A stretch of 64,000 nt of DNA from Octopus vulgaris (Eukaryota), in contig OX597817.1 in NCBI GenBank assembly GCA_951406725.2, positions 86,180,001 through 86,244,000 on the forward strand, in the 5' to 3' direction. This document shows positions 1,636 through 58,200 of the stretch, one piece after another. A program made the position numbers and the translations under genes. The first letter of the stretch is position 1. Each line of letters starts with the position of its first letter. The notes under the pieces were generated by a model, which saw nothing but the letters and a program-made list of their open reading frames with translations, was not told where the DNA came from and did not search any database.

Positions 1636-1886
1636 TTAAACTCTTACCAATAATGTCTCATAAATTTTCCCTTCCTGCTGAAATGCATTGTTTTTGTTTC
1701 ACTTTTCAATTAATTTTGGAAATCATGAAGAATTTAGTAAAACTACTATCTTTATTAAGCTGGTGTATGAAACATAAATTAACATAAACTTTTGATAAAC
1801 GATTTTAATTTAGATCACTTTAAAGTAGGAAATTTGTATCACAGAAACAAAGGTGATTTCAGGCAGGTTGGTATCAAAAGGGTTAA
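1636..1886. mobile_element. piggyBac-like MITE (family B)
   Basis: TTAA at both ends and an ...AAAAGGG|TTAA terminus; an inverted homologue lies at 40355-40575. Confidence 0.6.
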
Positions 1887-2190: not shown

Positions 2191-2366
2191 TTAACCCTAT
2201 AATATTCAGATAACTCAGTCAAATATGTTTGTTTAGTCACATTGCTTTGAATTAATCATACATTATTTCATAGCTTTAAAATTTCAATGATGCAATTATT
2301 TTAGAATGAAATTATAGGAAAGATGTGAGAGGCCAGATATGGTCAGTTTAAATGCTAAAAGGTTAA
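2191..2366. mobile_element. piggyBac-like MITE (family A)
   Basis: TTAA-CCCT...AAGG-TTAA; homologous to 21504-21732. Confidence 0.65.
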
Positions 2367-2733: not shown

Positions 2734-15049
<12,316 letters not shown>

Positions 15050-24550: not shown

Positions 24551-27500
24551 TACACAAACAGACTTCCTGTAGTTTCTTCTATGAAATTTGCTCACAAGGA
24601 AATAGCCAACCCACAGTGTCCTGCAGTAGGAATGAGCCCAAAACCACATGACTGAAAGTGAACTGCTCAGTCATGCCTGTGCCTATAATACATGAAAATG
24701 ATCAAAAATGATATCAATGTGCCAGTAGAAACATAATTCATGACAAAGACAGTAACCTTGTGTTAATTTTTATTATAGGCAGTACTATGACTTCTAGCAC
24801 TGGTCAAGAATCAATTGAACTAAGTTATTAATCCAAACAGAAAAAAACACAGACAGTGAGTAAGAGGGCTACTACAGTCTTGAATAAGGACTGAGAAAGG
24901 GCTTGTTATAAGACGGGAGGGGACAAAGTATAGATGACAAGCAGAGAGGAAGTAGGTACAACAGTTGGATAGTCTAAAGAAGCCACTGCAGTAATGAAAG
25001 AGACGGAGAAAATTCTGTATATTAATGGTTGCAGTGTGTTTGTGAGCAAATCTTTACCAATCGCTGAAATGACTATATTTTTGAGCAGATGTGGTCTCAA
25101 AGTGTGTATATGTAGCAGCTATGTTATTCCAAATATGTGAGCAGTATTAGTGGAATACATTTGGGATTTGTAGAAGATCAGCAATTGATTAGAGATGAAG
25201 CACTTTCTACTTCTGAAGAGACAGTGCAGTCTTTAAAATGCAGTTTAACACTGCTACATAAATGAGGTTGCCATGAAAGATGAGGCCTAGCATTTGTAGT
25301 GATTTTGAAAGTTTTAACCGTATTATACAGGACTAGGAAGAATGTAGTTTTATCTTTGCTAAGCTAGTTGTAATACATCTTAGAAATATCACGGTAATCT
25401 TACTTTGAGAAATCGCAAAACAATTTCTTGATCCCAATCACGGTTAATCTGTCCAAGCTCCTTTTTCATTTTCTGAAATAAATGAAATAGTTTTAGAAAA
25501 TTCCACAAAATCAATTATCTCATTTTATAAAGTGAAATAAAATAAGAAAGAAAATTATCTTTGAAATATTTACAATTGGAAGACACAGTTTGTCATAAAT
25601 TCACAGTAATTCGATCAAATCGTGACTACTAATGCATCAGTCTACCTTGTATGTTCCATCCACCAGATTTGATACTGAGGTTTTCATTCAGTTGTTTTTA
25701 ACTTGCCTCGAACTCATTTTGCTCAGATAACAAACCATACAGTTTTTCCTATCCACTTATCTTCATTCCACTTTTTGTCTCTCCCTTTCCTACATTATTT
25801 CCACCTTGTCTTTCACCCTCTTTTACTTCTTTGTTTAAAAGTTGCTTATGCACTAACCCATTTAAAAAGGAAGGCAAGAGAGAAAACATTCTAAAATAAA
25901 ATTAATGCAATAGATTTTTTGAGTCTTGAGAAACAAATTCTGAAGTATTTATTCTATATTTTTAAGGTGAGGAATTATGTACATTATTTACAATGAACAG
26001 ATAGGTGTCTTCACCTTGTTTGTTGTTATCACAACATTTTGGCTGATGTACTCTCCAGCCTTCATCAGGCGTTCTGGGGGTATTTTGAACCCAACTCTTT
26101 ATTTGACTAATGGGGTACACTGTTCTCATTCCTAAGGTATGTTGCTGACATTATTTTTCTGTTGATATTATTCAGGACGTCCGTATACTACAAACCAACC
26201 TTCACTGGACAATTCCTCAACTTCAATTCCTACCATCCATACAGTATAAAGAGAGGGATTGCTCAGTGCATAAAACATCAAGCAAAGACTATAAGTAGTG
26301 ATCCTGATACACACCAGGAAGAAATGATCAGGCTAAGAAACAATCTGCTATGCAACAACTACCCAAAGAATATACTATCCAGTCTGATGAGGAAGAGGAT
26401 GAAACCCATAAACTGAGCAGTCTGGCTACCCTATGTCAAAGGCCTCACGTAAAAGATATCCATTCTATATGACATCAGAACAGTATTCAGGAGTAATACA
26501 ACACTTCACAAATATCTTCTCCAAGTAAAACCACCCATAGAAGAGAATACGACCAAAACATGTGTGTACTCTATCCCATGCAGTAGTGGTAGGTTATACA
26601 AAGGCGAATCATGCTTCCCCCTTAAAGTAAGGGTAGAGGAACATCGTAAAGCTGTGTGACAAGAGGGAATGTTGTAAAATCGGGTATAGTCGATAATGTA
26701 TGGAAAAACGGAGACCACCTCTTGCTGTGGGATGAAGTTAAAATAATTGACAGAGAACACCACTGGAAAATACAGAAATTAAAAGAGGCTGCACATATGC
26801 TAGGACACGATAACCTCTTAAGCAGACCTAGTGCAGATATGAATGTAATATGGGAACTAGTATTAAGAAAAGATAAAATACTAGGTTTATATGCCCTGAA
26901 ATTCACTCTATAATTGCCCATGAGCATATAGCATAGTAGATAAGAGACCAGGCTACTAACCCTCGGATTCTAAATTCAATCCAGGCAGGGACTTGAAAAA
27001 TAATATCAAGAGAAAAATTACATCAGTAATATACCTTAGGAATAAGAACAGTATACCCCATTAGGGTTCGAAATTCCACCAGAACACCTGATGAAGGACG
27101 GAGAGTACATCAGCTGAAATGTTGTGATGATAACAAACAAGGTGAGGACACCTATCTATCCATTGTAAATAATAATCTGAAGGAGTTGTATTTGGAAAAA
27201 GAAACTCAGGCCATTGTTTCACAATAGATGTTGATTAAAAGAGCATCTAACCAGAAAACTTTATCCTAATTTCTAGAAAGGATAAATTTCTGTTTCCTCT
27301 TAATACTCAAAACAAACAGTGATGCTGAAGAAGACAAAATCATCCTCATGTGACTGCTCCTTTTGATATCATCTTTAAACATTACCATCTATCCATAAAC
27401 ACCATTGTCTGTAAACACTATTGTTTGTAAACACTGTTGCCTGTAAACATCATTGCTTGTAGACACTGTCATCTGTAAACTTATTTACCTCAATATCCTC

Positions 27501-29295
27501 TAATGTGGTCCCATCATCTTTAAAAGCAACATCATTGGACTTGGCAGCTCCATCTGTGGTTTTAATTAACTCATTTAAATATTCTTGATCAACTTTGTCC
27601 AAAGCAGCTTTGAAGTCATTCTGACCTCCTTGACCCTGACAATGAAATTTTTAAAAAAATAGTAACAAAGTCAAAAATAAAAATAATTAAATTTCTGACA
27701 TGAATTGTTGTTGATTAAATAAATTTTCACATTACATACTAACTGCCACTATTAGAGACAAAACACTTATTCAATATTTACATCTACACTTATCATCTTC
27801 ATATAACGTAAACCTTCCACACTGACAGTTTGACAGGATCCAACATGTCAGGGGGACTATGTTGAGCTCCAGTGTCTGCATATTATGGTTTTTCATATTT
27901 TCATGAGCAGGAGTAGTGGAGAAGCATCATAGCATGTGTTGTGAGGGATTTTGAAGGGTTTGAATAAATATAACAAGAGCAAAGTTTGAAGGAAATATTA
28001 GCCATTTTTCATATTTTCTAGGAGTAAGCAAATATGAAATAACAGTTGCTACCCAAGGACAAAAATTTTACATAAAAAAAAATTGCGAAGGATGCAAACT
28101 CATTGCCTGGTTTAAAACAATGAACATCTAGCCCATTGGTACTATCAGTAGAGTCCACACTGTGGCAAGTAATTAAACCAGGCTTCTTGTCTGACTTTCT
28201 CTTCCCAGTCATGGAGTCCCCTGAAATGAGTCAACAAGAATTACCCCACCAACTTTCTCCAAGTTATTTAAAACATCCAGACAATGATAACCCTTTAGCA
28301 TTCAGATTAATCTGCCAAATGTAATGCTTATTTATTTATATTGTTTTAAATCAATCATGCATTATCCTACAGCATTGGATTTCAATGATGTGATTGTTTA
28401 TTTTTTAGAATGACATTGTAGGGTATGTGTAAAAGGCTACATCTGGCCAGTTTGAACATCATTATCGTCAACATTTAATGTCCGTTTTCCATGCTGGCAT
28501 GGGTTAGACAGCTTGACAGGTAGTGGCAAGGCCAGGGGCAGCACCAGGTTCCATAGTCTGTTTTAGCTTGGTTTCTACAGCTGGATACCCTTCCTAACAT
28601 CAACCACTTTAAAGAATGTACTGGGTGCTTTTTACATGGTACCAGCACCCACACCAATACTTTTTACATGGCACCTTGTTTTAGATTTCAATTCTGTTGT
28701 GATAGGCAGATCTTCTTGCAATGTGCCACATATCTCAGTATCTGTCATCTTTGTAAGGTTCAAAAATATCTGGACCAGATATGGTTGGTTTAAATACAAA
28801 ATGAGGAATAAATAAAACAAAATTAATGCCTTCTATATTTACTTTGTTTACATCAGGTTCCAAAGTTTCATGCCGTTTTAGTCTTTGGTAAGCTTCAAGT
28901 TCTGTTTCCCCAAACAGAAGAATTGGTTCTCCTCTATCACGTAACCTTCGGATAACCTTTAAATAAAATTAAGATTTAATGGACATAGAAAAAAAACAAA
29001 ATTTTGGATAATATACAAAGATGAATTGCCTAATGATATTTAGTATGAGAAAATTCCTTTTGTGATTTACTAATTATATCAGCTTAAGACAATAATCAAA
29101 CAAAACTATTTGCATTAAAAAATGTAGATAAAAATTTAACAGAATTATTGCCACTGCATCAGGTGATTAACCATAAAAGAATTATATTTAGTTTGTTTTT
29201 ACCAAAGATATTTTTAGATTATATTAGCAGACATCTGGTTAAAAAATGTCTTCAAAATTTAAAATCATAAAAAGATTAAAATATGTATGTGTGTT

Positions 29296-36271: not shown

Positions 36272-39200
36272 GTGAGCAGTTTATTTCCTTTCTTAATTTT
36301 CATTTAATGTCTTGTTCTGTTAGTATTTTCTTTCAACAGCTTCGATGTATGAAAACCTGTGCGACTTTTACACATTAATATACCTGTTAAATGTGATTTT
36401 AATAATTTATTATTATTATTATTATAGATATTCTCATAAAATACATCTATTCCATTCAGCTTTTCCCCGAAAATTAGTCGGTTTCCTAACAAATATATAT
36501 ATATATATATATATAATACGATGGGATATATAATATATATATATATATATATAATACGATGGGATATATATATATATATATATATATAATATGGGGATAA
36601 ATTATCCATGCGGGTACCGTAAGACCTCTCAGGTATATTCCAGGTTCCGTAACCACATCAAGTAGTGAGAAACATAAGGGATCGCTTAGGGTGAGCAATC
36701 CCACTGTAATTCATCTGATGGGTAAATCCAGATTCGCTTCGCTGAATCATGGATATATTTTTTGGAATTTAAATCTACAACAATTGCAAGCATAATTACG
36801 CTTGAAGAAAAATTTGAAGCTGTACCAGTCTCTGTATTCTTTGTAATTGTTTTGTATATATATATATATATATATTGTTTTGAGTCGACTTGTTTTATTT
36901 TGAATCAAAATGTAAAGGAATCAGAAATATTCCCAAAAGGGGATCGAGTGGGCACTGTGCTATTCGCGCGCGCACACACCACACATACACACTAAAACAT
37001 TACTCATCTTGTTTCTTCAACAGGGTTAATTAGACCAAATCTCCAAGACTGCTTGTCCCAGAGCTCATGCCCCCAGATTTATTTTCTGTTAGGTTTACTT
37101 ATAAAACATACAATTATTTTCGGCAACGTTCATGCGAAACATCGCCTTATTTTCTTATGCGTGTTTGCGACAATATCATTTTCGAATAATGATCCCTTAT
37201 TTCGTATTTTAAAATATTTCATATTGTTTTTAGCATAAGACAGCCTGTAAGGAATCAAAAACGGATTGCTGAGCATTGCTTCGAGTTAAAACGACACCAA
37301 GTAACGAGATCCCAAAACATCTTGATGTTTGGGGATTTCATTTTGGTGTAATTTATAATAGAGACGAGAGTGTATTTTACTAAATCATTGAATATCAACA
37401 ATTACGAGAGTGGGCTGAAAGGCTCATAGGAGTGATGCTAGAGCTGTGAAATCTTATAGGCATTAATTTCAACTATTCTTATTAATAACTGAATTATTTC
37501 TTTCCTGGCAAACTGACACGCTGACGTGGTTGATACATTTAAGGATGATGCTCTAGCTTTATCAATAGTGCAAAAGTGGGTTGTTGAATTTAGGAGGGGA
37601 TGGGAAAGACATGAAGATGACCCAAGGTCTGGACGTCCTGCAACTGCCACCACTACCAAAGAAAACATTGATCACATTCACCACATGGTGATGGATGACA
37701 GGTGATTGACTATAAATCAAATAGCCAATGCTATTAGCATATCCTCTGAGAGAGCAGAGAATATTCTGCCCAATGAGCTTAGCATAATGAAGGTTTCTGT
37801 TTAGTCGGTGCCATTTAGTGGGGTCCTGATCAAAAGCACACCAGGCTGATCACATTACAGAAAAATCTGACATTGTTTGAAGCAGATCCAGCAGATTTCC
37901 TTGAAGGTTTCCTAACTCAGGATGAGTGTTGGCTTCATTACAGAGCCAGAGACAATTCATGCAGTGGAAACATCTCTCCTCATCTCGTCTGAAGAAGGCT
38001 AATGTTATTTCATCTGCAGGGAAGATGATGACCTCAGTTTTTTGGGATGCAAAAGGCATTGTGTTTATTGACTATCTTCAAAAGGACCACACCATCAATG
38101 GAGAGTACTATGCCAACTTGAAAGTTGTTGAGGCAGTTATAAAAGGCTATAAAGAACAAACATCTTAGAAATCTGACAAAAGGGGTCTTGTTTCATCAGG
38201 ACAATGCTCTAGCACACAAGTCCTTGGTTTCAATGGCTGCTGTGCATGCTGATCACTCTCCCTTATTCTCTTGATTTTGTCTCATCTGACTATCACCTGT
38301 TTCCCAACCTGAAAAAACACTTGACTGGAAACCAGTATTGCAGTGATGATGATGTAATATCTGCTATTGATGCCTTTTTTGACCAACGATGGAAGAAGTG
38401 TATGGATTACAAGGAGGACTTTGCTGAAAAGTATACCTCATTTGGTTACATTCCATGAGAGTATCTTGGGTCAGGTTATGAACTTTTTAGCTGACCCTCA
38501 TACAGCTGAAAACAATGTTTCTGCCAATTAACAAACCGCTAAGTTTTGCACCTTGCAGGACTGTAGTCAAATGTAATTGCATACTTGAGGTTCAAAGAGT
38601 CAACTTCTACATCAGGAGTATTCAATCTTTGTTCTAGAATTTAATGGAATTCTGTGAGAGACTAAATGAGGGAAATATTTGCTGATTCAGCCACAGTATG
38701 TTACAAACAAACTGGCAGCAGCATTATCAACTGTTTTACTGCAATTCTATATTTAAGAGATGAGGAATTATGTACATTATTTACATTTGATGGATATTTG
38801 GAATCTTGGGGTTAGTAGCCTGTGCTCTTAACCACTACGCCATATACCTGTGGGCATATGGCGTAGGAATGAGAACTCAGGTTTGAAATTTCCCCAAGAC
38901 ACCTGGAGGGTATATCAGCCGAAATGTTGTGTTAACAACAAACAAGATTTGGACAAATATCCATCAAATGTAAATAATGTTTTACTGCAAGTTTATATTT
39001 TTAAATATATAAATATGAAATGCATTTGATAATTAATCCTGCTAGTCATCAAGGTGATAATGTTATTTTGATTGATCTTAGTTAAGTATGTGACATTTAT
39101 GTAACTTTGTATTTTCAGCACCTCATTGATTATCCTGAAAGACTTACATCCTTCACTGCTTTTATTGTTTTACATACCATCTCCCTCTCATAATCATTTC

Positions 39201-45200: not shown

Positions 45201-47825
45201 TAATTGGGGCACTAATTTTGATCCACCTTTGTGTGTGTGTGTGTGTATTAATGTCTTCTTGTCTTTACATCAGGCAAGTAAACAAGTGTCATATATATTG
45301 TTTGTTTCTTATCTTCCATAAATTTGATCACAGGCAAAAATATGATCTTCACTGGAATCAGGTGGGAGTTGGCAACAGGAAAGGCATGACCTATGCAAGG
45401 ATGGAAATGTGGATGTTAAAAAAAGATATTAGGAGAAGTTTCAGGTGTGGAAACAAGGATTAGAATTGAAGGGCCTCAGAGTCAATCTAGCTAAAACCAA
45501 AGTCGTAATCAGTAGGAAGGTAGACAAATCACAAACGCCTTCAGGTAGATGGCCCTGCTCGATCTGTAGAAAAGGTGTAGGTAGAAACTCTATAAGATAC
45601 ACCAAGTGTAAGCTATGGACACATAAGAGGTGCAGCAATGTCAAAGGAAGGCTAACTAGGAAGATGGTTTTTATATGTGGCAGATGCTCAGGAACAATAA
45701 ACACTGAAAATGCTCTGAGACCAACTTCCGTCACTTTCCAGGGAGAAAAACTAGAAATAGTTGATAGTTTCCGTTACCTAGGTGACCAAGTCAGCAGCGG
45801 GGGCGGGTGTGCTGAAAGTGTAACTGCTAGAGTAAGAATAGCTTGGGCAAAGTTCAGAGAGCTCTTACCTCTGCTGGTGACAAAAGGCCTCTCGCACAGA
45901 GTGAAAGGCAGACTGTATGATGCGTGTGTACGAACAGCCATGCTACATGGCAGTGAAACATGGGCCGTGACTGCTGAGGATATGCGTAAGCTCGCAAGAA
46001 ATGAAGCCAATATGCTCCGATGGATATGTAATGTCAGTGTTCATAATCGACAGAGTGTAAGTACCTTGAGAGAAAAGCTGGACCTAAGAAGCATCAGTTG
46101 TGGTGTGCAAGAGAGACGTTTGCACTGGTATGGTCATGTGGCGAGAATGGATGAAGATAGTTGTGTGAAAAAGTGCCACACCCTAGCGGTTGAGGGAACC
46201 TGTGGAAGAGGCAGACCCAGGAAAACCTGGGACGAGGTGGTGAAGCACGACCTTCGAACTTTAGGTCTCACTGAGGAAATGACTAGAGACCGAGTCCTCT
46301 GGAAGTGTGCTGTGCGCGAGAAGACCCGGCAGGACAAGTGAGTCCATAACCCGTGGCCTTCTACTTGGGATGGAGCCAGCCTACGTATGCATACCTTCCT
46401 TCTTGGGACACAAAACTCTACTTGTGAAGACCTGTTGAGGCAAGTGAGGATCAGAATCGAAATCGATCAATGGAAATTGCAGATGTGTTACCAGTGCCGG
46501 TGGCATGTCGAAACTCTACTTGTGAAGACCCGTTGAGGCAAGTGAGGATCAGAATGGAAATCGATCAATGGAAATTGCAGATGTGTTACCAGTGCCGGTG
46601 GCATGTCGAAACTCTACTTGTGAAGACCCGTTGAGGCAAGTGAGGATCAGAATGGAAATCGATCAATGGAAATTGCAGATGTGTTACCAGTGCCGGTGGC
46701 ATGTAAGAGAACCTTCCGTTTTGCGACCGTTGCCAGCACCGCCCCGTTTTGTGTCCGTTCGTTGCCAGCCTCGCCTGGCCCTCGTGCCGGTGGCACATAA
46801 AAAGCACCATCCGTTCGTGGCACGTAAAAAGCACCCACTACACTCACGGAGTGGTTGGCGTTAGGAAGGGCATCCAGCCGTAGAAACACTGCCAGATTTG
46901 ACTGGGCCTGATGAAGCCTTCTGGCTTCACAGACCCCTGTAGAACCGTCCAACCCATGCTAGCATGGAAAACGGACGCTAAACGACGATGATGAATTATA
47001 TTTTTCAAAAGTAATTAAATGATGTTCGAGATGTTTTATTCTACTAATCTCATTTTGAGAGATTAAAGATTTTTCTAGGCCAAATATAATCTCTAAAGAT
47101 GAGGTTGATAGTACAAAAAAAAAATGTCAATTCATTTTGTCTCTGTATATTTTCAGCCAACTCCTGGTTATGAAAGTCGTCCGGATAGAATACTTGTTTC
47201 AAAGAGCTTCAAGATTTTATCATGTAATCTTCATGGCAATGGTAATTTTTATAAAAAGAAATACAAGACACTAATATTTTGGCATCGATTTCAGAGAGTA
47301 ATTAAAAGTGCATATGAAGCTTTTCAAGGTTTCTCTGGCTACAGTTGTACACAGGATTGTGGCCCACATGGTTCTTGTCGCTGTGGAGTATGCGTTAACA
47401 TTGGCAATCAGAAAGATTGCCTCCTAATAGACTGTTCAGAATGCAATTCCTTCATGTTTTTACTTTTTATTTTATTGACTCTGTTTGCTTGTTTATTATC
47501 ATCAGTTACTGTGCTGGCCCTCATATTATTTCTCTTTAGTCGAATATCAGTAAGAACATTTCACTGTCTCTACAGTGTAAAATTATATTTCAACACGAGA
47601 GCATATTCAAGGTTGCGGATACTCTACAGGTTTTTTCCATTTATAAAAGCACCGTTGCCTTTTCTTTTAGTTTGCATCGTTACAAATCTTGTTTTTTACA
47701 CAGTAATTACCTTCATTTTCTCAGGTACTTTGCAAACTATTTTTCGTGTCATGGCTGAAGAGTTTTATCCTTCAGACCACCTAATGATATCATCCCAGTT
47801 ATGGATACCAAACAAGGAGTCTTAG
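36113..47825 (+). CDS. Uncharacterised EEP-superfamily (endonuclease/exonuclease/phosphatase) membrane protein, about 477 aa; join(36113-36271,39428-39608,40646-40855,42365-42579,47157-47825)
   Basis: A hydrophobic N-terminus is followed by the EEP motifs in canonical order: KVATYNLWN, PDVIAFQEV, GIGILSKLP, LTVHFS, VLLGDFN, RPDRIL, YPSDH. Introns are GT-AG with compatible phases (0,1,1,0). The start could be ATG 36113 or 36137. Confidence 0.88.
37405..38500 (+). mobile_element. Degenerate mariner transposon
   Basis: TA target duplications, imperfect TIRs (CGAGAGTGGGCTGAAAGGCTCATA / TATGAACTTTTTAGCTGACCCTCA), and transposase fragments SAGKMMTSVFWDAKG, HQDNALAH and YSLDFVSSDYHLF. Confidence 0.88.
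38745..38982. mobile_element. Short palindromic non-autonomous Penelope-derived element
   Basis: Both ends match the pLTR of 25950-27176 in inverted orientation; central palindrome CTACGCCATAT...ATATGGCGTAG. Confidence 0.7.
39428..39608 (+). CDS. EEP gene exon 2
   Basis: cag|ATA...GAAG|gtatt; IETINPDVIAFQEVR...WNGWERE. Confidence 0.9.
40355..40575. mobile_element. piggyBac-like MITE (family B)
   Basis: CCCTTTTGATAC...CAGAAGGG-TTAA; inverted homologue of 1636-1886. Confidence 0.6.
40646..40855 (+). CDS. EEP gene exon 3
   Basis: cag|GC...TCAG|gttag; GIGILSKLPIL...HVLTVHFSYDRQQQC. Confidence 0.9.
41503..41780 (-). mobile_element. tRNA-derived SINE (family 1)
   Basis: Reverse complement of the 57059-57449 family; similar copies at 24370-24683 and 60428-60600. 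Confidence 0.7.
42365..42579 (+). CDS. EEP gene exon 4
   Basis: cag|AA...ATG|gtaag; NVVLLGDFNTY...LADVW...GFTFSNM. Confidence 0.9.
43549..43911. mobile_element. RTE insertion with an inverted 5' segment
   Basis: 43549-43743 is antisense ORF2 sequence (homologous to 45880-46075), joined directly to a sense 3' tail ending in (GAT)n. Confidence 0.8.
44296..44535 (-). mobile_element. RTE 3'-end fragment
   Basis: Reverse-oriented tail-family copy. Confidence 0.75.
44719..45231. mobile_element. Tc1/mariner-like non-autonomous element nested in a SINE microsatellite
   Basis: TIRs CAGGGTGGGCCAAAATTAGTGCCC / GGGCACTAATTTTGATCCACCTTTG; inserted after TA; SINE sequence resumes on the far side. Confidence 0.7.
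45431..46993 (+). mobile_element. Young 5'-truncated RTE-clade LINE (uninterrupted 298-aa ORF2 C-terminus at 45445-46341, plus 3'UTR)
   Basis: Motifs GLRVNLAKTK, FRYLG, MLHGSETW, RRLHWYGHV and GRGRPRKTW; (GAT)n tail. Confidence 0.92.
46413..46704 (+). repeat. Three near-identical 98-bp tandem repeats in the RTE 3'UTR
   Basis: Units start at 46413, 46511 and 46609 (AAACTCTACTTGTGAAGACC...GGCATGTCG). Confidence 0.92.
47157..47825 (+). CDS. EEP gene exon 5 (DRI motif, Cys-rich module, two TM segments, PSDH motif)
   Basis: cag|CCA...TAG; PTPGYESRPDRIL...CTQDCGPHGSCRCGVC...EFYPSDHLMI. Confidence 0.9.
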   Translation, partial: PTPGYESRPDRILVSKSFKILSCNLHGNGNFYKKKYKTLIFWHRFQRVIKSAYEAFQGFSGYSCTQDCGPHGSCRCGVCVNIGNQKDCLLIDCSECNSFMFLLFILLTLFACLLSSVTVLALILFLFSRISVRTFHCLYSVKLYFNTRAYSRLRILYRFFPFIKAPLPFLLVCIVTNLVFYTVITFIFSGTLQTIFRVMAEEFYPSDHLMISSQLWIPNKES

Positions 47826-50299: not shown

Positions 50300-51258
50300 A
50301 GGGAGGGTGTTCATGCAAAGAGTTTCTGGTCAAGAGAGACTTTGAACCGAGCAGTCGTCGGCATCTTCACTATCTCGTCCGGCAGCTTATTCCACAGGTC
50401 CGCAACCCGGACGGAGAAAGCCCCTCTCCTTCGATTGAGATGAAATCGTCGCAGATAGAGCTTTTCGGAGTGACCCCGCAGCCGACGCTCTGGAGCAGGA
50501 GTGAAGAACAGCTCTTTCGAGAGGTTACACTTTCTGCTTATGATGTGGTGAGCGAGAATGAGATCACCACGGCAATGGCGTTTTTCTAGAGAATAAAGCT
50601 CGAGCGTCTTCAGCCTTTCTTCATAAGACAAATGCTTGAGACCAAGAACCATGCAGGTAGCCAGCTTCTGGACTCTTTCAAGATGATGCATGTCTTTGAG
50701 GAGATAAGGAGAAGAGGCTTGAATCCCGTACTCCAATATGAGTCTCACCAGCGTGACATAGAGCGGTAGGAATATGGTTGAATCAAAAAGAGAACTCCGC
50801 GTTCTTTGTTGGCAGCATGGACGCACTGGGCCGAAGGCGAAAAGGAAGAATCCACCAAGATACCCAGGTCCTTTACCTGGTCGGTCCTCTCCAGCAGCAG
50901 ACGACCCGGCTCGAAATCAAGTTGAGTTGCAGGAGAGGAGCTAACAGGCAGATGACAGCACTTTGACACAGGTCCCATTCGTTAGACCATCTCCAAACTT
51001 GGTGGAGGCATCGACGAAGATCATCTCGCGAGGAGCAGCCAGTTTGACATCATCGGCAAATAGAAGGGTGTGTTGCGTGAGGTCGTTGGGCAAGTCATTT
51101 ATGAAGACTAAAAACAATAAGGGCCCAAGCACTGAACCTTGAGGCACGCCACTGCTCGCACTGGAGATGTTGGACAGCGAACCATTAACTTGAACTTGGA
51201 AGGAGCGATCTGAGAGGAAGGCACCAACCCATCGTACAATATCCGGATGGAAACTATT
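50300..51258 (-). mobile_element. CR1-like LINE, 5'-truncated and frameshifted
   Basis: GVPQGSVLGPLLFLVFINDLP, LFADD, KDLGILVD, LSYEERLKTL, RLRGHSEKL, WNKLP. Confidence 0.9.
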
Positions 51259-54200
51259 GTGCATGTGTAAATGGATGCACTCAGTGCACAAATTTACTGT
51301 TTTGGTTGCAGCGCTTATTAGTAATCATGTCAAACTTTCTCCACGAGAGGGGAGCATCAGTAGTATATGCTCCAACTGATTTGTGAACAAACTTTACATG
51401 GGAATCTAAGGGAGATAATTCTTTCAAGCACGTAATTTTTTTTTTTTAACGTTTCTAATGCGCTCTAATATTTGGCAGAAAGATTTAGTCGACCTCAGAA
51501 CTTGACTGATATTTTATTTCATAGACTCCTGAAAAGATGAATGGTAAAGTTGACAATGATAGGATTTGAACTCTAAGCATAAAGAATCAGAACAACCTCA
51601 AGGTTTAAATGACATTACCAATCCAAAGCACAAAAATTGCATTTAAAAAGTAAAGAGTTTATTGTACCACTGTCTTCTATAATTGTTGGAGAATGGCCAT
51701 GTTATAGAAAATAAATGCAGTTACTCATTGCTAAAATTAGGCGAGTTGACTTCCTGCAAGGGAATTTCATCTTAAAGCTAAAATAAGGATCAATTTTAAT
51801 ATTTGGAATGCAGTGAAGAAAACCTAAACAATTTTCAGTTTTATAAATGGTGCAGACATGGTTGCATAGTTAAGAAGTTTGCTTTGGAACCATCTGGTTA
51901 GGGATCAATCCTACTGCATGAACATCGTTGGCAACAAGAAGAGCATCCAGTCACTGGAAATCTGCCTCAACAAATACCGTCTGAACTAAAGTATAGAAAA
52001 GTGGATGGTAAAATGATGGTGATGAAGTAGATGATAAATTGTGTCGCTTGAATAGATAAATGAGAAATTGCTAGTTGTTTATATTATCAACTGTGTCAAC
52101 TACATCTAGGCAATACAAATGATTTGGAATTCATGCATTGTTACATAAGGCCACAAATTTGTAGAGAAAGAGTATAGTCAGTGAAATCAACCACTGAAGG
52201 TAATTATATCCGGCAAAATTTATGAACTCAAACGTTTAATGAAATGTAACTAAATATCACAATCCTGACACTACAGTTTCTGTCATTCTCACCACAAAAT
52301 ATTTCGAAGTCTATTAGAGCAACACAAATGATTTGTTCTTACCATCCACCACTTAGATAAGAATAATAATTTAACAATGTCATCATTGCATTTTCATTAA
52401 TTGAGGCCAACTGAAATGAATTTGTTGTGCAAAATCAATTAGTGACAAATTGCAGTTATATCAAAACCACCTCAAATTAATGTCAGTTTTGACATTAAAA
52501 AGTACTCTGTATGCAGGAGTCAGTCTATGTATCACTACAGTGGAAAGGAATAGTTTTAATATTCCAATCCTTTATTTCATTCCTTGTTCTAAGGGTATGT
52601 AGATAGAAACAGCACTCCCTACAGAAATTAACATCCCATATTACCTGGTACCTATCCCTAACTGTTGGATAAAATTAAATAATGCATTGTGCATAGAAGC
52701 AAGAAACTTGATTTCATAATCAAAGTGCAGCCAATTTTAATACCTCATACTTTAGCTGCTGCTTTTCTTAAATGTGTATAACATAGGCTTATGAAGGACA
52801 GCCACAGGTATGCACAACTGCAGAATCAGTTAGATGTCAGCATGGATGAATAAATCACTTTTTCCTCAATGATGGAAAACAAAATTTATTTTCAACATGA
52901 TGATAATGATAATGATGCATCAAATGAAATTTAAAAGAAGTAAAAACAACAAACCCTCAGCAAGATGGTAAAATGGTCAAGTGACAGTCTAAATGGCTTA
53001 AAACATTTTTATTTTGTTTCTTGTACTGTGGAATTGTTGTATTTTACAACAAAAATTGCATCCTTCTCAGGTCAATAAATTAATAGCAGGAATGATTATA
53101 TTGCTCCCCTTGAAATTTGTAATTTAGTTCCAATTTAAGAAATATTGTCCACTGTGTTTCATTGGCCAAAGAGCTGACCATGTGAAAAGCTGCTCCTTTT
53201 GAATACATTTTCAGAAGATTCTCGACTTTTCTCTAACTTCATGTCTATGTATGGCTCTGTTTCTCTTTAAAAGATAATTCTAAATTCACACAACTTTTCT
53301 ATAATAATGATAACCAAATAGTTTCATGAAAATTAGAAGAGTTTCTAAATGAAATTTTACATCTAATTATTTTCTCCAAAATAATTACATTTATATCAGT
53401 TTACCTTATTAGCACAACATAGTTAAAAATACTATTGTTTTTAAAACTAAAAAAAAAAAACAAAACAATATCTCTTTTCAATACAAAAGGTAACCAACAC
53501 TCTCTGTGTAGTTATTTAAACTAAAATTGAAATAACCATGGAAATATATCTTTGTGGGCAATTTTTATACCTTGATATGATTTAAACAATAATAAAACAT
53601 AAGAAACAGGATCTTGTTCCTAAACCCTTACACTCTAAATCTTTATTCTTGATTAAAATTCACAAATAACTTAAGATTGTTACCAGGTGTAACAAAACAA
53701 AACTGGACAGTTCCCTATTTCTTTGCTAAACAGCCTATCTTCATACATTTTCCTATTCAAACACCCATTAGATTTCTGTAATCTTTTAATCTTCCTCAAA
53801 ACAAGAAAAGCACGTACACATTTTATAGTATGAATTAAGGCTTTGTATATTCCTCTATAATTACCAAGAAATCACTGAAATCCTGATAATTTCCCCAATA
53901 TTTCTGAATCTTTTTTACCCAGAATCTTTTTTAAACAACCCAGTTAATATTTGTAAATAATAGGAGGCAATATATTCCCTTGTTTTATTTTAGAAATAGG
54001 AAGCTTAACTACTTATATAGTTTTACCATTACTCTCTTTTTTTTTTTTTCTTTCTTCCTTTGCATCAAAATATCAAGATATTTGAAAATTATGGAGCTAA
54101 TAAAAAAAAAATGTTCAGATATCAGGGTATGAAAAATACAACTGCACAAAAATAGAATGAAATAAGGAGACACAGATTTCTCTTTTCAGATTTGAAATGG

Positions 54201-54286: not shown

Positions 54287-55237
54287 TCAGCTGGCTTTCT
54301 TATAAAATAATAGATATGCATTCTCATTAAGTGTCCGAGTTGACAACTCATACTGCATATCAACTTCAGTTACATTGTCATCATCAAATTTGTACCACTT
54401 TCCATTACTGTCCAGACAATAGCAAATGTAGTGACCACTGCTAGTGCCACAAGAGCTTAAATGAACACACATAGCATACAAATTGTATTTGTAAGTAGGA
54501 TCTACTGTATTGCAGCTACTCTTACTAGTTGATTTTAAGTTGAACACTATGTCTTTCAAGTCCAAACCCAAAAGAGTAATATTAACAGGGGTTGTTATCT
54601 TTTTAGCATTTTTAGTCTTTGAGTCAAATGTAAAGCGCAATAGCTGAATAATAAGGCATTCTGGAAGTTGGTGAAGAAGACAACGTCGATCAATGGTCTG
54701 TTTTTCTCGTATCATTCCATCACATGCCCCTGCATAGAAACGAGGAGTTGAAGTCCGAATACTATGAGGTGTCAAGGTGTCGTCTGTTTTGTTGCTGACA
54801 ATGGGAGACATATATGGAGCCATGTGAAATGCAGGAAGTGTCTGGATGTTTACACAAGGAGGGATGTATGATAGAGGAGACATTACAGAAGAGCTTACTG
54901 AAGGAGTTGAATGGTCAACAGGATTAACTTTAGTACACCGAGAACACACCTGACCAGAAAGTTGTTCTACACTACTAAAGATGGTGAAGCAATCTTCAAG
55001 ATATATATTAGATTCTGATAATGATTCTCCAAGTGGGATTGGTAAAACAGCAAATGTCTGTGGCTGAATTGATAGATGTCCTTTCCGGCTACAATTATAT
55101 GCTTCTAGTAACTGACCAGTGAAAAGGTTGTCTATGATGGAAGAATTTTCATTTTTGTAAGCGTACCAATCTAGATCAGATAAATGCTGAGCCAACTCTG
55201 CATAAGCTTCGTTATCAAAGCTATTTAGCTTGTCAAT
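54287..55237 (-). CDS. USP last exon
   Basis: tag|ATT GAC AAG...TGA; open frame of 316 codons carrying the His box. Confidence 0.92.
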   Translation of the reverse strand: MDKLNSFDNEAYAELAQHLSDLDWYAYKNENSSIIDNLFTGQLLEAYNCSRKGHLSIQPQTFAVLPIPLGESLSESNIYLEDCFTIFSSVEQLSGQVCSRCTKVNPVDHSTPSVSSSVMSPLSYIPPCVNIQTLPAFHMAPYMSPIVSNKTDDTLTPHSIRTSTPRFYAGACDGMIREKQTIDRRCLLHQLPECLIIQLLRFTFDSKTKNAKKITTPVNITLLGLDLKDIVFNLKSTSKSSCNTVDPTYKYNLYAMCVHLSSCGTSSGHYICYCLDSNGKWYKFDDDNVTEVDMQYELSTRTLNENAYLLFYKKAS

Positions 55238-58200
55238 CTAAAATGCAAACAGAAAAAAAAGTTAAAAGTGCAATTATTTTGAAACTATTTTATGCATCAT
55301 CAATAAAACATTGGTTTTTATCTGATGTTTACAACTATTAAAGGTATTACCAATAGTTTGAAGTTATGTAATTCCTTTGTGTTCTAAATATCAGATAAAA
55401 GGGGTAAATATAGATCAGGGAAAAGCAAATAAGAAACCATTTTGATACTAAAACATGAGATATATTCAAAAATAATTAGCTCCCCTGTCAATTTTTATTC
55501 TGATCAATCAAGTGAGCTTAACTGAAATAAACTAGTTGTTTAATATCAGTGACTAAAGGTTAACAGGTTTGTTATTGAACAATTAGTCAAAAGGTAATTT
55601 GAGTACATGCAATTTTACCTTGTGATCTGTTTTATTCCCAAGGAAGACTCCTACTGCAGCCTAAACCATATCAATACTAGATGTTTGCATACAATACCTA
55701 CAAGTAATCTGTTCTGGTTCAGTTTATTTATTTAGCTATAGTAGTGTATGAAATTTTTCATTGAATACATCTAGTAAAATTCTTTCCTCTGAAACAATCT
55801 GGCCTTTGGCAGTCCATATAAGATTTTGTTGTTAAAATTTATGCATAATAAATTGCTTATACTTCTACAATATAGAAAATGTTTTAATTTTTTATACAAT
55901 TCCTATGGAGGTCCTGTAGAGTAAAATAAGAATCAAAGGGATCCAAAGGCAAAAAATGGTTGGGAACCACTGCCCTAAAGATATAAATCTTACTGATTTT
56001 TAAAAATTTACAACTCTTCCATAACTGCAATGTAGTACATTTATTTCTCCTCAGCCTACTTCATTTTCACTCTTCCAGAGATTCTTCATTAACTTCCTAA
56101 CTCATATTTCGCAAACTTATTCTTATAGAACACTTATAAAATTTTTCCAAAACTTGTGAAAACCATTACAATATTTTACAACCAACTCCTGTCACTTAAC
56201 TTTAATAAAATACTAAATGAAGCAAAACTTGTTTAGGAGAGAGAATTGATTAACATATGTAAAACAACTTATTTTGAAAATGGTGGATATAAAAGAAATT
56301 TTTTGATTAAATTTCATTAAAAGACACCTTCTCTTGTAGAACACTAGAATGTTTTTCAGAAAATCCACTTAAAAAAACTGCTCTTTCCTGACACTCAAAT
56401 TCCACTTTATTTCTCTCCAATAGCTTATCTGACTTTTGTATCATCATTACTATAACAAAAAAAAAACTTCTCATAACAGACAAACAGTTATAGAATTGTT
56501 CTTTAAACCTTTAGCATTCAGATTACTCTGTCAAATAAGTTTATCTGTTCATGGTTTTGAACTAATCGTGCATCATCTCCTAGCTTCAAGATTTTGAAGA
56601 TGTGATTGCTTATTTTCAGAAGGACATTGTAGAGTAGGTGTAATAGGCCAGATCTGGCCAGTTTCAGCATAAAACAGTGTTTGGGCCAGATATGGCCAGT
56701 TTAAACGCTAAATGGTTGTCTAACTGCCAGATTTTTTGCAAATTCTATACTGACTTTTCAGAAAAGCTGATGGGTTTAAAATCAAATATGAAAATAATTT
56801 ATATCACATTATATCCTCCTAGACATTATACAGCTATATTTCAAATACAGAGACATTACTATAAAGAAAATCTTTCCACATACAGGCCAATTAATGGTTT
56901 GTTAATTGTATAGGAATGCAAAGTATTTCTTTATTCAATAAATTCTTTATATTTTCTTTAGTTGTAGAAATGCATCATGGCTCCAAGTACATGGAACTAT
57001 CCTATTCTTTAGTCATCAATCAACATGATTCCAGCAAAATTTTCATTCTGTAAACATAGGCGCAGGAGTGGCTGTGTAATAAGTAGCTTGCTAACCAACC
57101 ACATGGTTCCGGGTTCAGTCCCACTGCGTGGCATCTTGGGCAAGTGTCTTCTGCTATAGCCCCGGGCCGACCAATGCCTTGTGAGTGGATTTGGTAGACG
57201 GAAACTGAAAGAAGCCTGTCGTATATATGTATATATATATATGTATGTGTGTGTATGTGTTTGTCCCCCCTAGCATTGCTTGACAACCGATGCTAGTGTG
57301 TTTACATCCCCATCACTTAGCGGTTCGGCAAAAGAGACCGATAGAATAAGTACTGGGCTTAAAAAGAATAAGTCCCGGGGTCGATTTGCTCAACTAAAGG
57401 CGGTGCTCCAGCATGGCCGCAGTCAAATGACTGAAACAAGTAAAAGAGAGTAAGAGTATTAAACCTTGTTTTAACACTATCCACCACTAATGAAAATCTC
57501 CCACCTGTCTATTTGCAGTTACTAGGTGTTACTTAGTGATATTCTAGCTACAACTCTCAAAAAAATATTTCTCCAAATTACTGTGATTGGAGCTGATTTT
57601 AAAAGTGGGTTTTTTTTTGGCAAACATTTTAATAGCTTATTTTATTGATTTATTTATTTTGTTAATATTTGTTCATATTTCCTTTCAATTATCCTAAATA
57701 TATGTCACATAGGTGGTGCCATGGCCAGTGAGGGTTATCAGAGGCATAGTTATTGCTAGTTGAAAGCCATCTAAAGCTGACATCTACCTCATTATCTGCC
57801 TGACAGTATGTATTTATGGTCCCTTTAAAGACCTATCTAATGGAAAATGCCACCTGGGGCAACTTTTCATTCGAAAGTGTTAAGCTGTTAAGCAAGGGGA
57901 ATTTGTAAGGCTTGTTAGTAATTAGCTATGAAATAGAAAATCTGAGAAGGAAGGGATTAACAGAAGGTACTGTCAAGAATTACCAACTGTCTTTTACTCT
58001 GAGTTACAGACCAACTACAGGTAGTAAGGTACGAAATGCTTTTGCCAATCTATCATTACCCATATTTTAATTTTTATTAAAATTACTTTAAATAATTAAA
58101 AAGTACAAAATATTCAATCTATACTTCTATACAATAATCATTACTGATTTCTGGAAAGCTAGACAAAATGGATGACTTCACATAAGTGTCATTTACCATA

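Follow-up and report, generated by a model that had tools for sequence, protein, structure and literature searches.

Among the systems described so far, the closest to the repeat examined here is Poseidon, a Penelope-like element (PLE) of the green anole, for which the start of reverse transcription has been placed 111–118 nucleotides (nt) into the open reading frame (ORF), and for which ribozyme cleavage is not needed for insertion (PMC11167929). According to the usual division, coding retrotransposons use RNA polymerase II (Pol II) for transcription, and only the short non-coding ones use RNA polymerase III (Pol III) (PMC10886601). Runs of four or more T (T4 and longer) are effective Pol III stops, and TCTTT halts about half of the transcripts (PMC12101331), so that an element read by Pol III over its whole length would be expected to lack T runs on its coding strand. 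Here we analyze a decayed Penelope/Poseidon element found in a 64,000-nt stretch of Octopus vulgaris DNA (contig OX597817.1, positions 86,180,001 to 86,244,000; hereafter the window), whose end repeat, or pseudo-long terminal repeat (pseudo-LTR), joins a tRNA-like head to a minimal hammerhead ribozyme. Judging from the sequence, we assign a probability of about one half to the reading that this head is the element's own promoter, from which Pol III would read the leader, the ORF, and the second repeat. Tentatively, the element could be seen as an autonomous coding retrotransposon in which a tRNA-type promoter replaced the Pol II one and an ORF of ~2.5 kb was purged of Pol III stops, with a long RNA serving as template and possibly as an uncapped message, and with short RNAs from truncated copies being SINE-like parasites (SINE, short interspersed element).

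The head starts 9 nt past the ORF stop codon (26911–26913), and is followed by a leader of ~45 nt, a start codon, and the hammerhead, which falls within the first ~33 codons. This start codon is mutated in the unit that follows the ORF (copy A), and is kept in two other local copies, arms B and C, as an in-frame ATG from which the reading is open across the hammerhead; between ATG and hammerhead the three variants vary in length, by 15 and 27 nt, with the frame preserved. Nothing else in the window matches the first 80 residues of P0021, a full-length relative with reverse transcriptase (RT), as well as the three tails of A, B, and C do (E 0.006, 0.020, and 0.16; pairwise E 0.001), and the longer of the two insertion ends reads SSSLKYR, at the place where the conserved N-terminal domain of protein P0039 opens with TSSQKYR. 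The 3' part of the unit is the open N-terminal frame of a PLE protein and not a non-coding SINE body with a simple-repeat or LINE-derived tail (LINE, long interspersed element); as a whole, the stretch represents the end repeat of a protein-coding element in decay, not a separate small RNA. The first-pass annotation had suggested that the unit could be a self-contained RNA of the SINE or retrozyme type, which the ribozyme would trim. This proposal is not supported, because hammerhead and tail can be read as the opening codons of the ORF of the element itself, the head comes after the ORF stop in this and at least four other copies, and both insertion ends, ~79 and 110 nt beyond the start of stem II, are situated downstream of the predicted cut (27123/27124). 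Trimming would therefore part the head from the RT start, and no SINE would be made. That the unit is a Poseidon-type pseudo-LTR appears nearly certain to us, and is common to all the readings weighed below, except for those that see in it a retrozyme or an independent insertion or chance match.

The ORF upstream of the head is a fragment with internal stops and one frameshift near 26657, and has no Pfam match of its own. In tblastn searches it is 49–65% identical to the RT proteins P0021 and P0005 (E 3e-63 and 5e-78), and it aligns to residues 602–844 of the RT-bearing P0021 (847 residues); 29 relatives were found, the closest named ones being barnacle proteins (cluster of P0023). Through the relatives, a single ORF can be recognized where RT is followed by a C-terminal GIY-YIG-type endonuclease: P0026 is named as a GIY-YIG endonuclease, and P0027 has a weak GIY-YIG match (E 0.017, below the Pfam cut-off). 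An extra zinc finger in the linker that joins RT to endonuclease is a trait of Neptune and Nematis (PMC8557442), and no C-x(2,5)-C-x-x-C linker finger is present in P0001, P0021, P0039, or P0027; a C-terminal endonuclease region without this extra finger assigns the element to Penelope/Poseidon by anatomy. Also in agreement with Penelope/Poseidon is the minimal hammerhead that the pseudo-LTR carries close to where the ORF starts, decayed in three of the three local copies. A sequence search of the PDB returned only weak matches to group II intron-like RTs, and when loci were searched by protein, no relatives came up in viral contigs or in the genomes of prokaryotes.

The head itself consists of an A-box-like TAGCATAGTAG (26929–26939), of GGCTACTAACC in the anticodon-arm region (26951–26961, with the anticodon-loop-like 7-mer at 26953–26959), and of a B-box-like ATTCAATCC (26974–26982), with an A-to-B spacing of 45 nt and one mismatch to the consensus in each box. 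The three motifs are present where the first-pass annotation had placed them, albeit decayed, and its description of the head as tRNA-like holds for the layout, given that A and B boxes stand at tRNA spacing on the 5' end of the unit, as they do in SINEs. A second copy of the head lies at 38856–38796 (77% over 61 nt, E 2.7e-7), and in other genomic copies the majority letter is the box-consensus G at both 26938 (81 contigs) and 26974 (33 contigs), with the box-consensus and stem-restoring letters making up ~95–97% of the summed depth (run X2, where majority letters come from the 40 of 231 difference rows listed). Because of this second copy, and because the majority letters give the box consensus, we consider the head to be above chance. 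In 10 of 10 control loci that carry a hammerhead on the sense strand past the ORF, the sequence upstream of this hammerhead has 4–6 mismatches to the A and B boxes, compared to 2 here. Furthermore, of about 14,100 contig pieces 32 were listed, and among these at least four from run X9 (records 28–31) span the ORF end through the head with 20–33 differences each, and therefore represent other loci, which means that the head travels with the coding element. The earlier claim that the head belongs to the family, and is not a one-off SINE insertion, is borne out by these loci and by the second insertion. With regard to copies that would start at the head, as in a SINE family, the ORF is found directly upstream of it here and at these loci, and one ORF-less insertion folds at the head edge. 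The family is abundant, with summed depth up to 10^5 over the ORF and the hammerhead and 60 in the flank bin, although such depth is not a copy number.

Two further observations concern the head. The word TACTAAC (26954–26960), which resembles the classic splice branch-point word, overlaps the anticodon-loop-like segment and is present in both local heads; it stands ~80 nt ahead of the TAG that precedes the start codon, with several AGs in between. The head may bear a likeness to tRNA-Arg. The window also harbors an abundant family of tRNA-headed SINEs, with an A-to-B spacing of 44 nt, represented by 11675–11750 and 12 further matches (for example 57059–57125 and 49844–49773). Derivation of the head from this common SINE was rejected, as 11675–11750 used as query recovered the 12 other matches, none of which is the head, and as only ~27 nt around the A box align between the two (E 0.81).

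The avoidance of T runs on the coding strand is the other evidence in favor of Pol III transcription. Between 26174 and 27173, which covers about the last third of the element, there is a single run of at least three T (T3) versus 9.2 expected, and 0 of 2000 mononucleotide shuffles were as low; no T4 is found there, nor in the unit from the head to the insertion end, and A runs are normal (33 versus 34.5 expected). The observed/expected ratio for T3 is 0.11, compared to 0.71–2.74 in 50 related ORFs of at least 600 nt, and for the ORF alone it is 0.15 (1 versus 6.7), compared to 0.52–2.7 in the homologous part of 37 loci. For TT, the ratio is 0.63 versus 0.89–1.43 in the controls. The longest TTT-free stretch of the window, on either strand, is this very ORF (732 nt; the next is 459 nt), and all six of its Phe codons are TTC. 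The clearest result comes from a test in which the protein is kept constant. Among silent T/C sites, T occupies 43 of 74 that have no T neighbor, 9 of 24 that have one, and 1 of 13 at which a TTT would arise (Fisher p=0.0007). The corresponding silent T counts in the pooled controls (all loci with a forward match) are 2935/5783 versus 945/1758, the lowest of 64 single control loci has 0.22 on a baseline of 0.25, and the same test for A gives no drop (41/55 versus 31/45). Of the majority-letter changes to T within the ORF, among the rows listed (26550, 26585, and 26691), none makes TTT.

Several other causes for the loss of T runs were considered. Ultraviolet damage, slippage, and avoidance of self-targeting by the endonuclease were rejected, as each would have cost A runs too. 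ADAR editing of the opposite strand was rejected as well, based on the neighbor preference of ADAR and on the fact that TA is not depleted (94 versus 88), although an ADAR event older than the family could still lie behind the pattern. Elsewhere in the window, two LINE-like ORF fragments, found at 45433–46341 on the plus strand and at 50311–51324 on the minus strand (weak PHD match; RT-like motif), show a TT observed/expected ratio of 0.70 and a mild drop of silent T next to T, respectively.

If the head does act as a promoter, it would do so in a partial tandem, where it sits upstream of the next ORF. Transcription factor IIIC (TFIIIC) would bind the A and B boxes, and Pol III would run through the leader, the ORF, and the second repeat, from which T4 stops and most T3 near-stops would have been removed by selection, until the RNA ends at a T run in the flanking DNA. 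The element's RT would then start inside the uncleaved RNA at two tail positions, as for the anole Poseidon, and early stops of reverse transcription followed by fold-back would give rise to short inverted arms. The uncapped RNA might be translated cap-independently, as proposed for R2, where initiation after ribozyme processing provides a precedent (PMC6765202), or the protein might come from Pol II read-through of some copies. Such a finding would break the division between coding and non-coding retrotransposons mentioned above, would make the element a natural example of Pol III transcribing several kilobases, and would raise the question of how the RNA is translated. A direct path would also open from an autonomous element to SINE-like offspring, since each truncated end already holds a promoter and an RT start. 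Our search of the literature listed no paper in which a tRNA-type promoter or an ORF free of T runs is described for a Penelope element, with Repbase, Dfam, subscription papers, and supplements, all of which may describe this repeat, being outside its scope. Should the Pol III reading fail, we would be left with an ordinary Poseidon element in decay whose 3' untranslated region (UTR) is tRNA-like, of modest interest.

We acknowledge that a number of observations weigh against transcription of the whole element by Pol III. The sole Penelope promoter mapped experimentally is Pol II-like (PMC2377424), and Pol III is considered poorly processive (PMC10886601). The T-run signal comes from one decayed piece of 740 nt and was noticed by eye before testing. 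The absence of T4 alone is not significant (0 versus 2.1, p=0.10), and 4 of the 50 controls lack T4 as well. When shuffles preserve dinucleotides, the T3 deficit is reduced to p=0.039 for the ORF plus repeat and to p=0.22 for the ORF alone, yet these shuffles also absorb the TT deficit that belongs to the signal. The controls, 76 metagenome loci, are distant (27–54% identity, with one match of 82% that spans 22 residues), belong to other animals, and are in part near-duplicates of one another. Among the other ORFs of the window, one of nine shows a milder significant drop (35/54 versus 9/24, p=0.03), and the adjacent RT-like ORF has the same tendency (23/43 versus 6/19, p=0.17). The second subfamily, represented by arm C, has TTT ahead of the hammerhead, and three T3 runs are found in that arm. 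As for the head, 10 shuffled 64-kb windows yielded 0–5 A/B pairs each, and the real window has 2, a number within chance if taken alone. ARAGORN found no tRNA genes, and did not include the head among its 24 calls at a relaxed threshold of 80, while Rfam searches of the whole window, and of two stretches alone, returned no tRNA or hammerhead match. ARAGORN also found no genes in the 60 of 76 related loci scanned. Lastly, the peptide match over the hammerhead partly reflects the shared RNA motif; for the 55-residue tail peptide no longer protein was found, nor a local alignment to P0039, and an N-terminus of this kind is seen only in the P0021 cluster among the 235 proteins compared.

An element read by Pol II is the most probable of the alternatives, even though we consider it rather unlikely. 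Here the ancestor of a Pol II-read Poseidon element would have taken up a tRNA or SINE head in its 3' UTR, where the head would be a passenger, an enhancer, or an insulator, and T runs would be avoided for other reasons, such as U-rich splice or termination signals. The known Penelope promoter is in fact internal and LINE-like (PMC2377424), translation of the RNA would pose no problem, LINE-like ORFs in the same window show a milder T drop, and the head does not fold as a tRNA, its folding in this copy being no better than that of shuffles (z -0.07). This explanation, however, does not account well for the 50 related ORFs that lack such a head and show no comparable loss of T runs, nor for a loss that is specific to T and to one strand, with AA and A runs near expectation.

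The local insertions bear on a second alternative. Arm B, which abuts the truncated 5' end of the ORF, starts just downstream of the tRNA-like head and keeps both the ATG and stem II. The ORF-less insertion (38745–38980, 236 bp; Table 1) consists of two back-to-back, internally deleted arms, C and D, with their fold-back point at the palindrome that borders the head on its 5' side. Arm D lacks the B box and the hammerhead and is joined directly to the 3' end, which translates as ...NSSSLKYR; the perfect minus-strand A box that the first-pass annotation had noted in this related copy is indeed present (38842–38832). Arm C belongs to the subfamily that is 27 nt shorter between ATG and hammerhead, seen also as contig loose ends at 26091 and 27084. 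In both local insertions, one arm reaches 31 nt further than the other: B (tail at 25952–25982) and D carry this extra tail, A and C do not, and in other contigs the tail shows up as the loose end at 27173, the short end of A (57–78 contigs per DNA-type run). We read this difference as the Penelope tail signature, a tail of 30–40 nt at one end only, and together with the inverted arm it supports, in two of two cases, the earlier view that Penelope machinery made the insertions.

On this basis, the work could be split between polymerases, with Pol III reading only a short unit (from the head through the uncleaved hammerhead to the RT starts) into SINE-like RNAs, and Pol II reading the ORF. We judge this quite unlikely as the full explanation, and it is compatible with Pol III reading the whole element as well. 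From head to insertion end the short unit has no T4 and contains the RT start region; the 236-bp insertion, with its 13-bp target duplication and its fold-back at the 5' edge of the head, may derive from a short, uncleaved, head-initiated RNA as a SINE-like side product; and two of the listed joints put inversion points within the head (26140 to 26971 and 26174 to 26951). The T-run avoidance of the ORF itself, on the other hand, is left unexplained, no cluster at the head edge is seen among the 24 loose ends listed of about 1500, the summed depth over the ORF is not below that over the head (with the caveat on depth given above), and short 5'-truncated inverted arms are a normal product of Penelope insertion (PMC8557442).

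Table 1. Parts of the Penelope/Poseidon element and of its local copies, in window coordinates
Feature	Coordinates	Strand	Basis or remark
Arm B, inverted 5'-truncated pseudo-LTR	25952–26173	-	81% to 26999–27173; alignment, translation
5'-truncated Penelope/Poseidon ORF (RT thumb, linker, GIY-YIG-type endonuclease)	26174–26913	+	tblastn, relatives, T-run tests
Short imperfect palindrome on 5' edge of head	26915–26926	+	Equals fold-back point of second insertion (38843–38862)
tRNA-like head	26922–26995	+	A box, anticodon-loop-like 7-mer, B box; predicted type 2 Pol III promoter
First codons, ORF of next tandem unit	27042–27173	+	Translation; frame open to insertion end 27173
Minimal type I hammerhead, decayed	27083–27128	+	Alignment; PMC4209133; same architecture in 15 of 76 related loci
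13-bp target-site duplication of C/D insertion, left copy	38732–38744	+	Right copy 38978–38990, overlaps element end by 3 nt
Arm D: head with perfect A box, deleted after anticodon arm	38745–38856	-	Window self-comparison, translation
Arm C, fold-back arm of second subfamily	38853–38980	+	Alignment, window self-comparison; short end

The hammerhead is present in outline, but decayed. The series AACAC-CTGATGA-A...GAAA-TGTT-GTG, which the first-pass annotation had called, is indeed found at 27083–27126, with stem I at 27083–27087/27124–27128, CUGAUGA at 27088–27094, a bulged A, stem II, and GAAA at 27116–27119; the core and stems are not intact, however, as stem II is broken in copy A (27096–27115). 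Arm B retains its stem II as claimed (GGCTG/CAGCC, at 26060–26056 and 26045–26041), on a core that is dead because GAAA became AAAA (26040–26037), and in arm C the CUGAUGA box is deleted. No local hammerhead out of three is intact or passes a relaxed descriptor, and the folding of both hammerheads tested is no better than that of shuffles (z 0.05 and -1.32). Other genomic copies restore the 5' side of stem II at 27098–27099 (115 and 117 contigs, run X2), and the attribution to the minimal Penelope type stands, this architecture being shared with 15 of the 76 related loci. The Rfam model Hammerhead_1, which does not match this unit, does match canonical hammerheads in locus L010. A pattern scan of viral, genome, and metagenome contigs gave no hammerhead matches. 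The ribozyme probably depends on a dimer or on protein, and insertion probably does not require it.

Two additional hammerhead observations were made along the way. In L010, a pair of canonical type I hammerheads that exceed the gathering score of Rfam lies back to back, at 1787–1831 (minus strand) and 2232–2276 (plus strand), downstream of a Penelope-like ORF. In the window, an unrelated hammerhead-like motif at 12652–12696 (plus strand), whose stem III is the palindrome TGCA, also found as stem III in locus L001, is the only match to the descriptor, with 0.17 expected per shuffle.

That the unit is a retrozyme, or an Sm-alpha-like repeat, in which tandem non-coding monomers would be cut by the hammerhead to unit-length or circular RNAs, is very improbable. 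Although a tRNA-type promoter followed by a hammerhead is precisely the Sm-alpha layout (PMC6765202, PMC2770079), self-comparison of the window found no head-to-tail monomers, the unit is attached to an ORF and has a coding tail, its copies end at two fixed points beyond the cut site, and the hammerhead is of the minimal Penelope type, with insertion of the anole Poseidon needing no cleavage (PMC11167929). Hardly credible, finally, is a head that inserted into one copy as an independent SINE or matches the boxes by chance, as a single A/B pair within chance and a window rich in tRNA-headed SINE copies would allow, since the same head is joined to a Penelope tail in the second insertion, follows the ORF at the other loci described above, and differs from the head of the common SINE.

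Other features of the window were noted as well. At 27507–27641 on the minus strand, an open exon-like frame is found with no Pfam match, which we assume to resemble the splicing factor PRPF18; if this is an exon, the Penelope copy would be intronic, and its ORF antisense to the host gene. A contig of this locus from run X11 (record 3), a run guessed to be RNA, is not evidence of expression, because the locus appears intronic. A match similar to U4 small nuclear RNA at 57698–57830 (plus strand; 42.6 bits versus a gathering score of 46, E 2.9e-6) is probably a pseudogene or a divergent copy, and an open frame of 316 codons at 54287–55237 (minus strand) matches ubiquitin C-terminal hydrolase (E 6e-32), with a faint WWE match. 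The decayed stretch at 37500–38500 presumably holds the remnant of a mariner-type transposase, by likeness judged by eye.

In spite of many commonalities with described elements, the repeat studied here also shows clear differences from each of them. Poseidon_Ac (PAc) of the green anole shares the RT followed by a C-terminal GIY-YIG-type domain, the overlap of the pseudo-LTR hammerhead with the ORF start, the two insertion ends ~30 nt apart and ~110 nt past stem II, and the inverted truncated arm; its start codon, however, is at stem II, whereas the one here is upstream of the hammerhead core, and the extract used of that report mentions no tRNA-like sequence (PMC11167929). In our element, in contrast, a tRNA-type A/B cassette occupies the 3' UTR/promoter position, and the sense strand avoids T runs. 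The Penelope element of Drosophila virilis likewise has an internal promoter in its pseudo-LTR, so that the 3' UTR belonging to the upstream copy drives the downstream ORF, but that promoter is TATA-less, LINE-like, with a downstream promoter element (DPE) and an intron (PMC2377424), where A and B boxes are found here. The minimal hammerheads of metazoan PLEs (PMC4209133) are of the same kind, with a short stem I, one base left unpaired ahead of stem II, G10.1-C11.1, and a stem III of two bases; the copies found locally are decayed, and TG stands in them at the position that a palindromic CG occupies in 8 of the 15 related loci. Metazoan non-LTR retrozymes also carry a type I hammerhead, and mobilization by Penelope-like machinery has been proposed for them, but they are tandem, ORF-less, and processed into circles (PMC7229834, PMC7761336), none of which was seen here. 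TRIMp3 elements (Cassandra, Helenus, and Ajax) have a Pol III promoter derived from a small RNA inside the terminal repeat, as our element might; these are short LTR elements (about 0.3–1.3 kb) that code for no protein, and Pol II is stated to be obligatory for their autonomous partners (PMC10886601). Lastly, in Sm-alpha and Sj-alpha of schistosomes, a tRNA-derived Pol III promoter is followed by a type I hammerhead, as here (PMC6765202, PMC2770079). Cleavage in that layout leaves the promoter at the RNA's 3' end, and tandem copies are therefore needed. Those repeats are non-coding and their hammerheads are canonical, while the octopus unit is the end repeat of a coding element, together with the first codons of that element.

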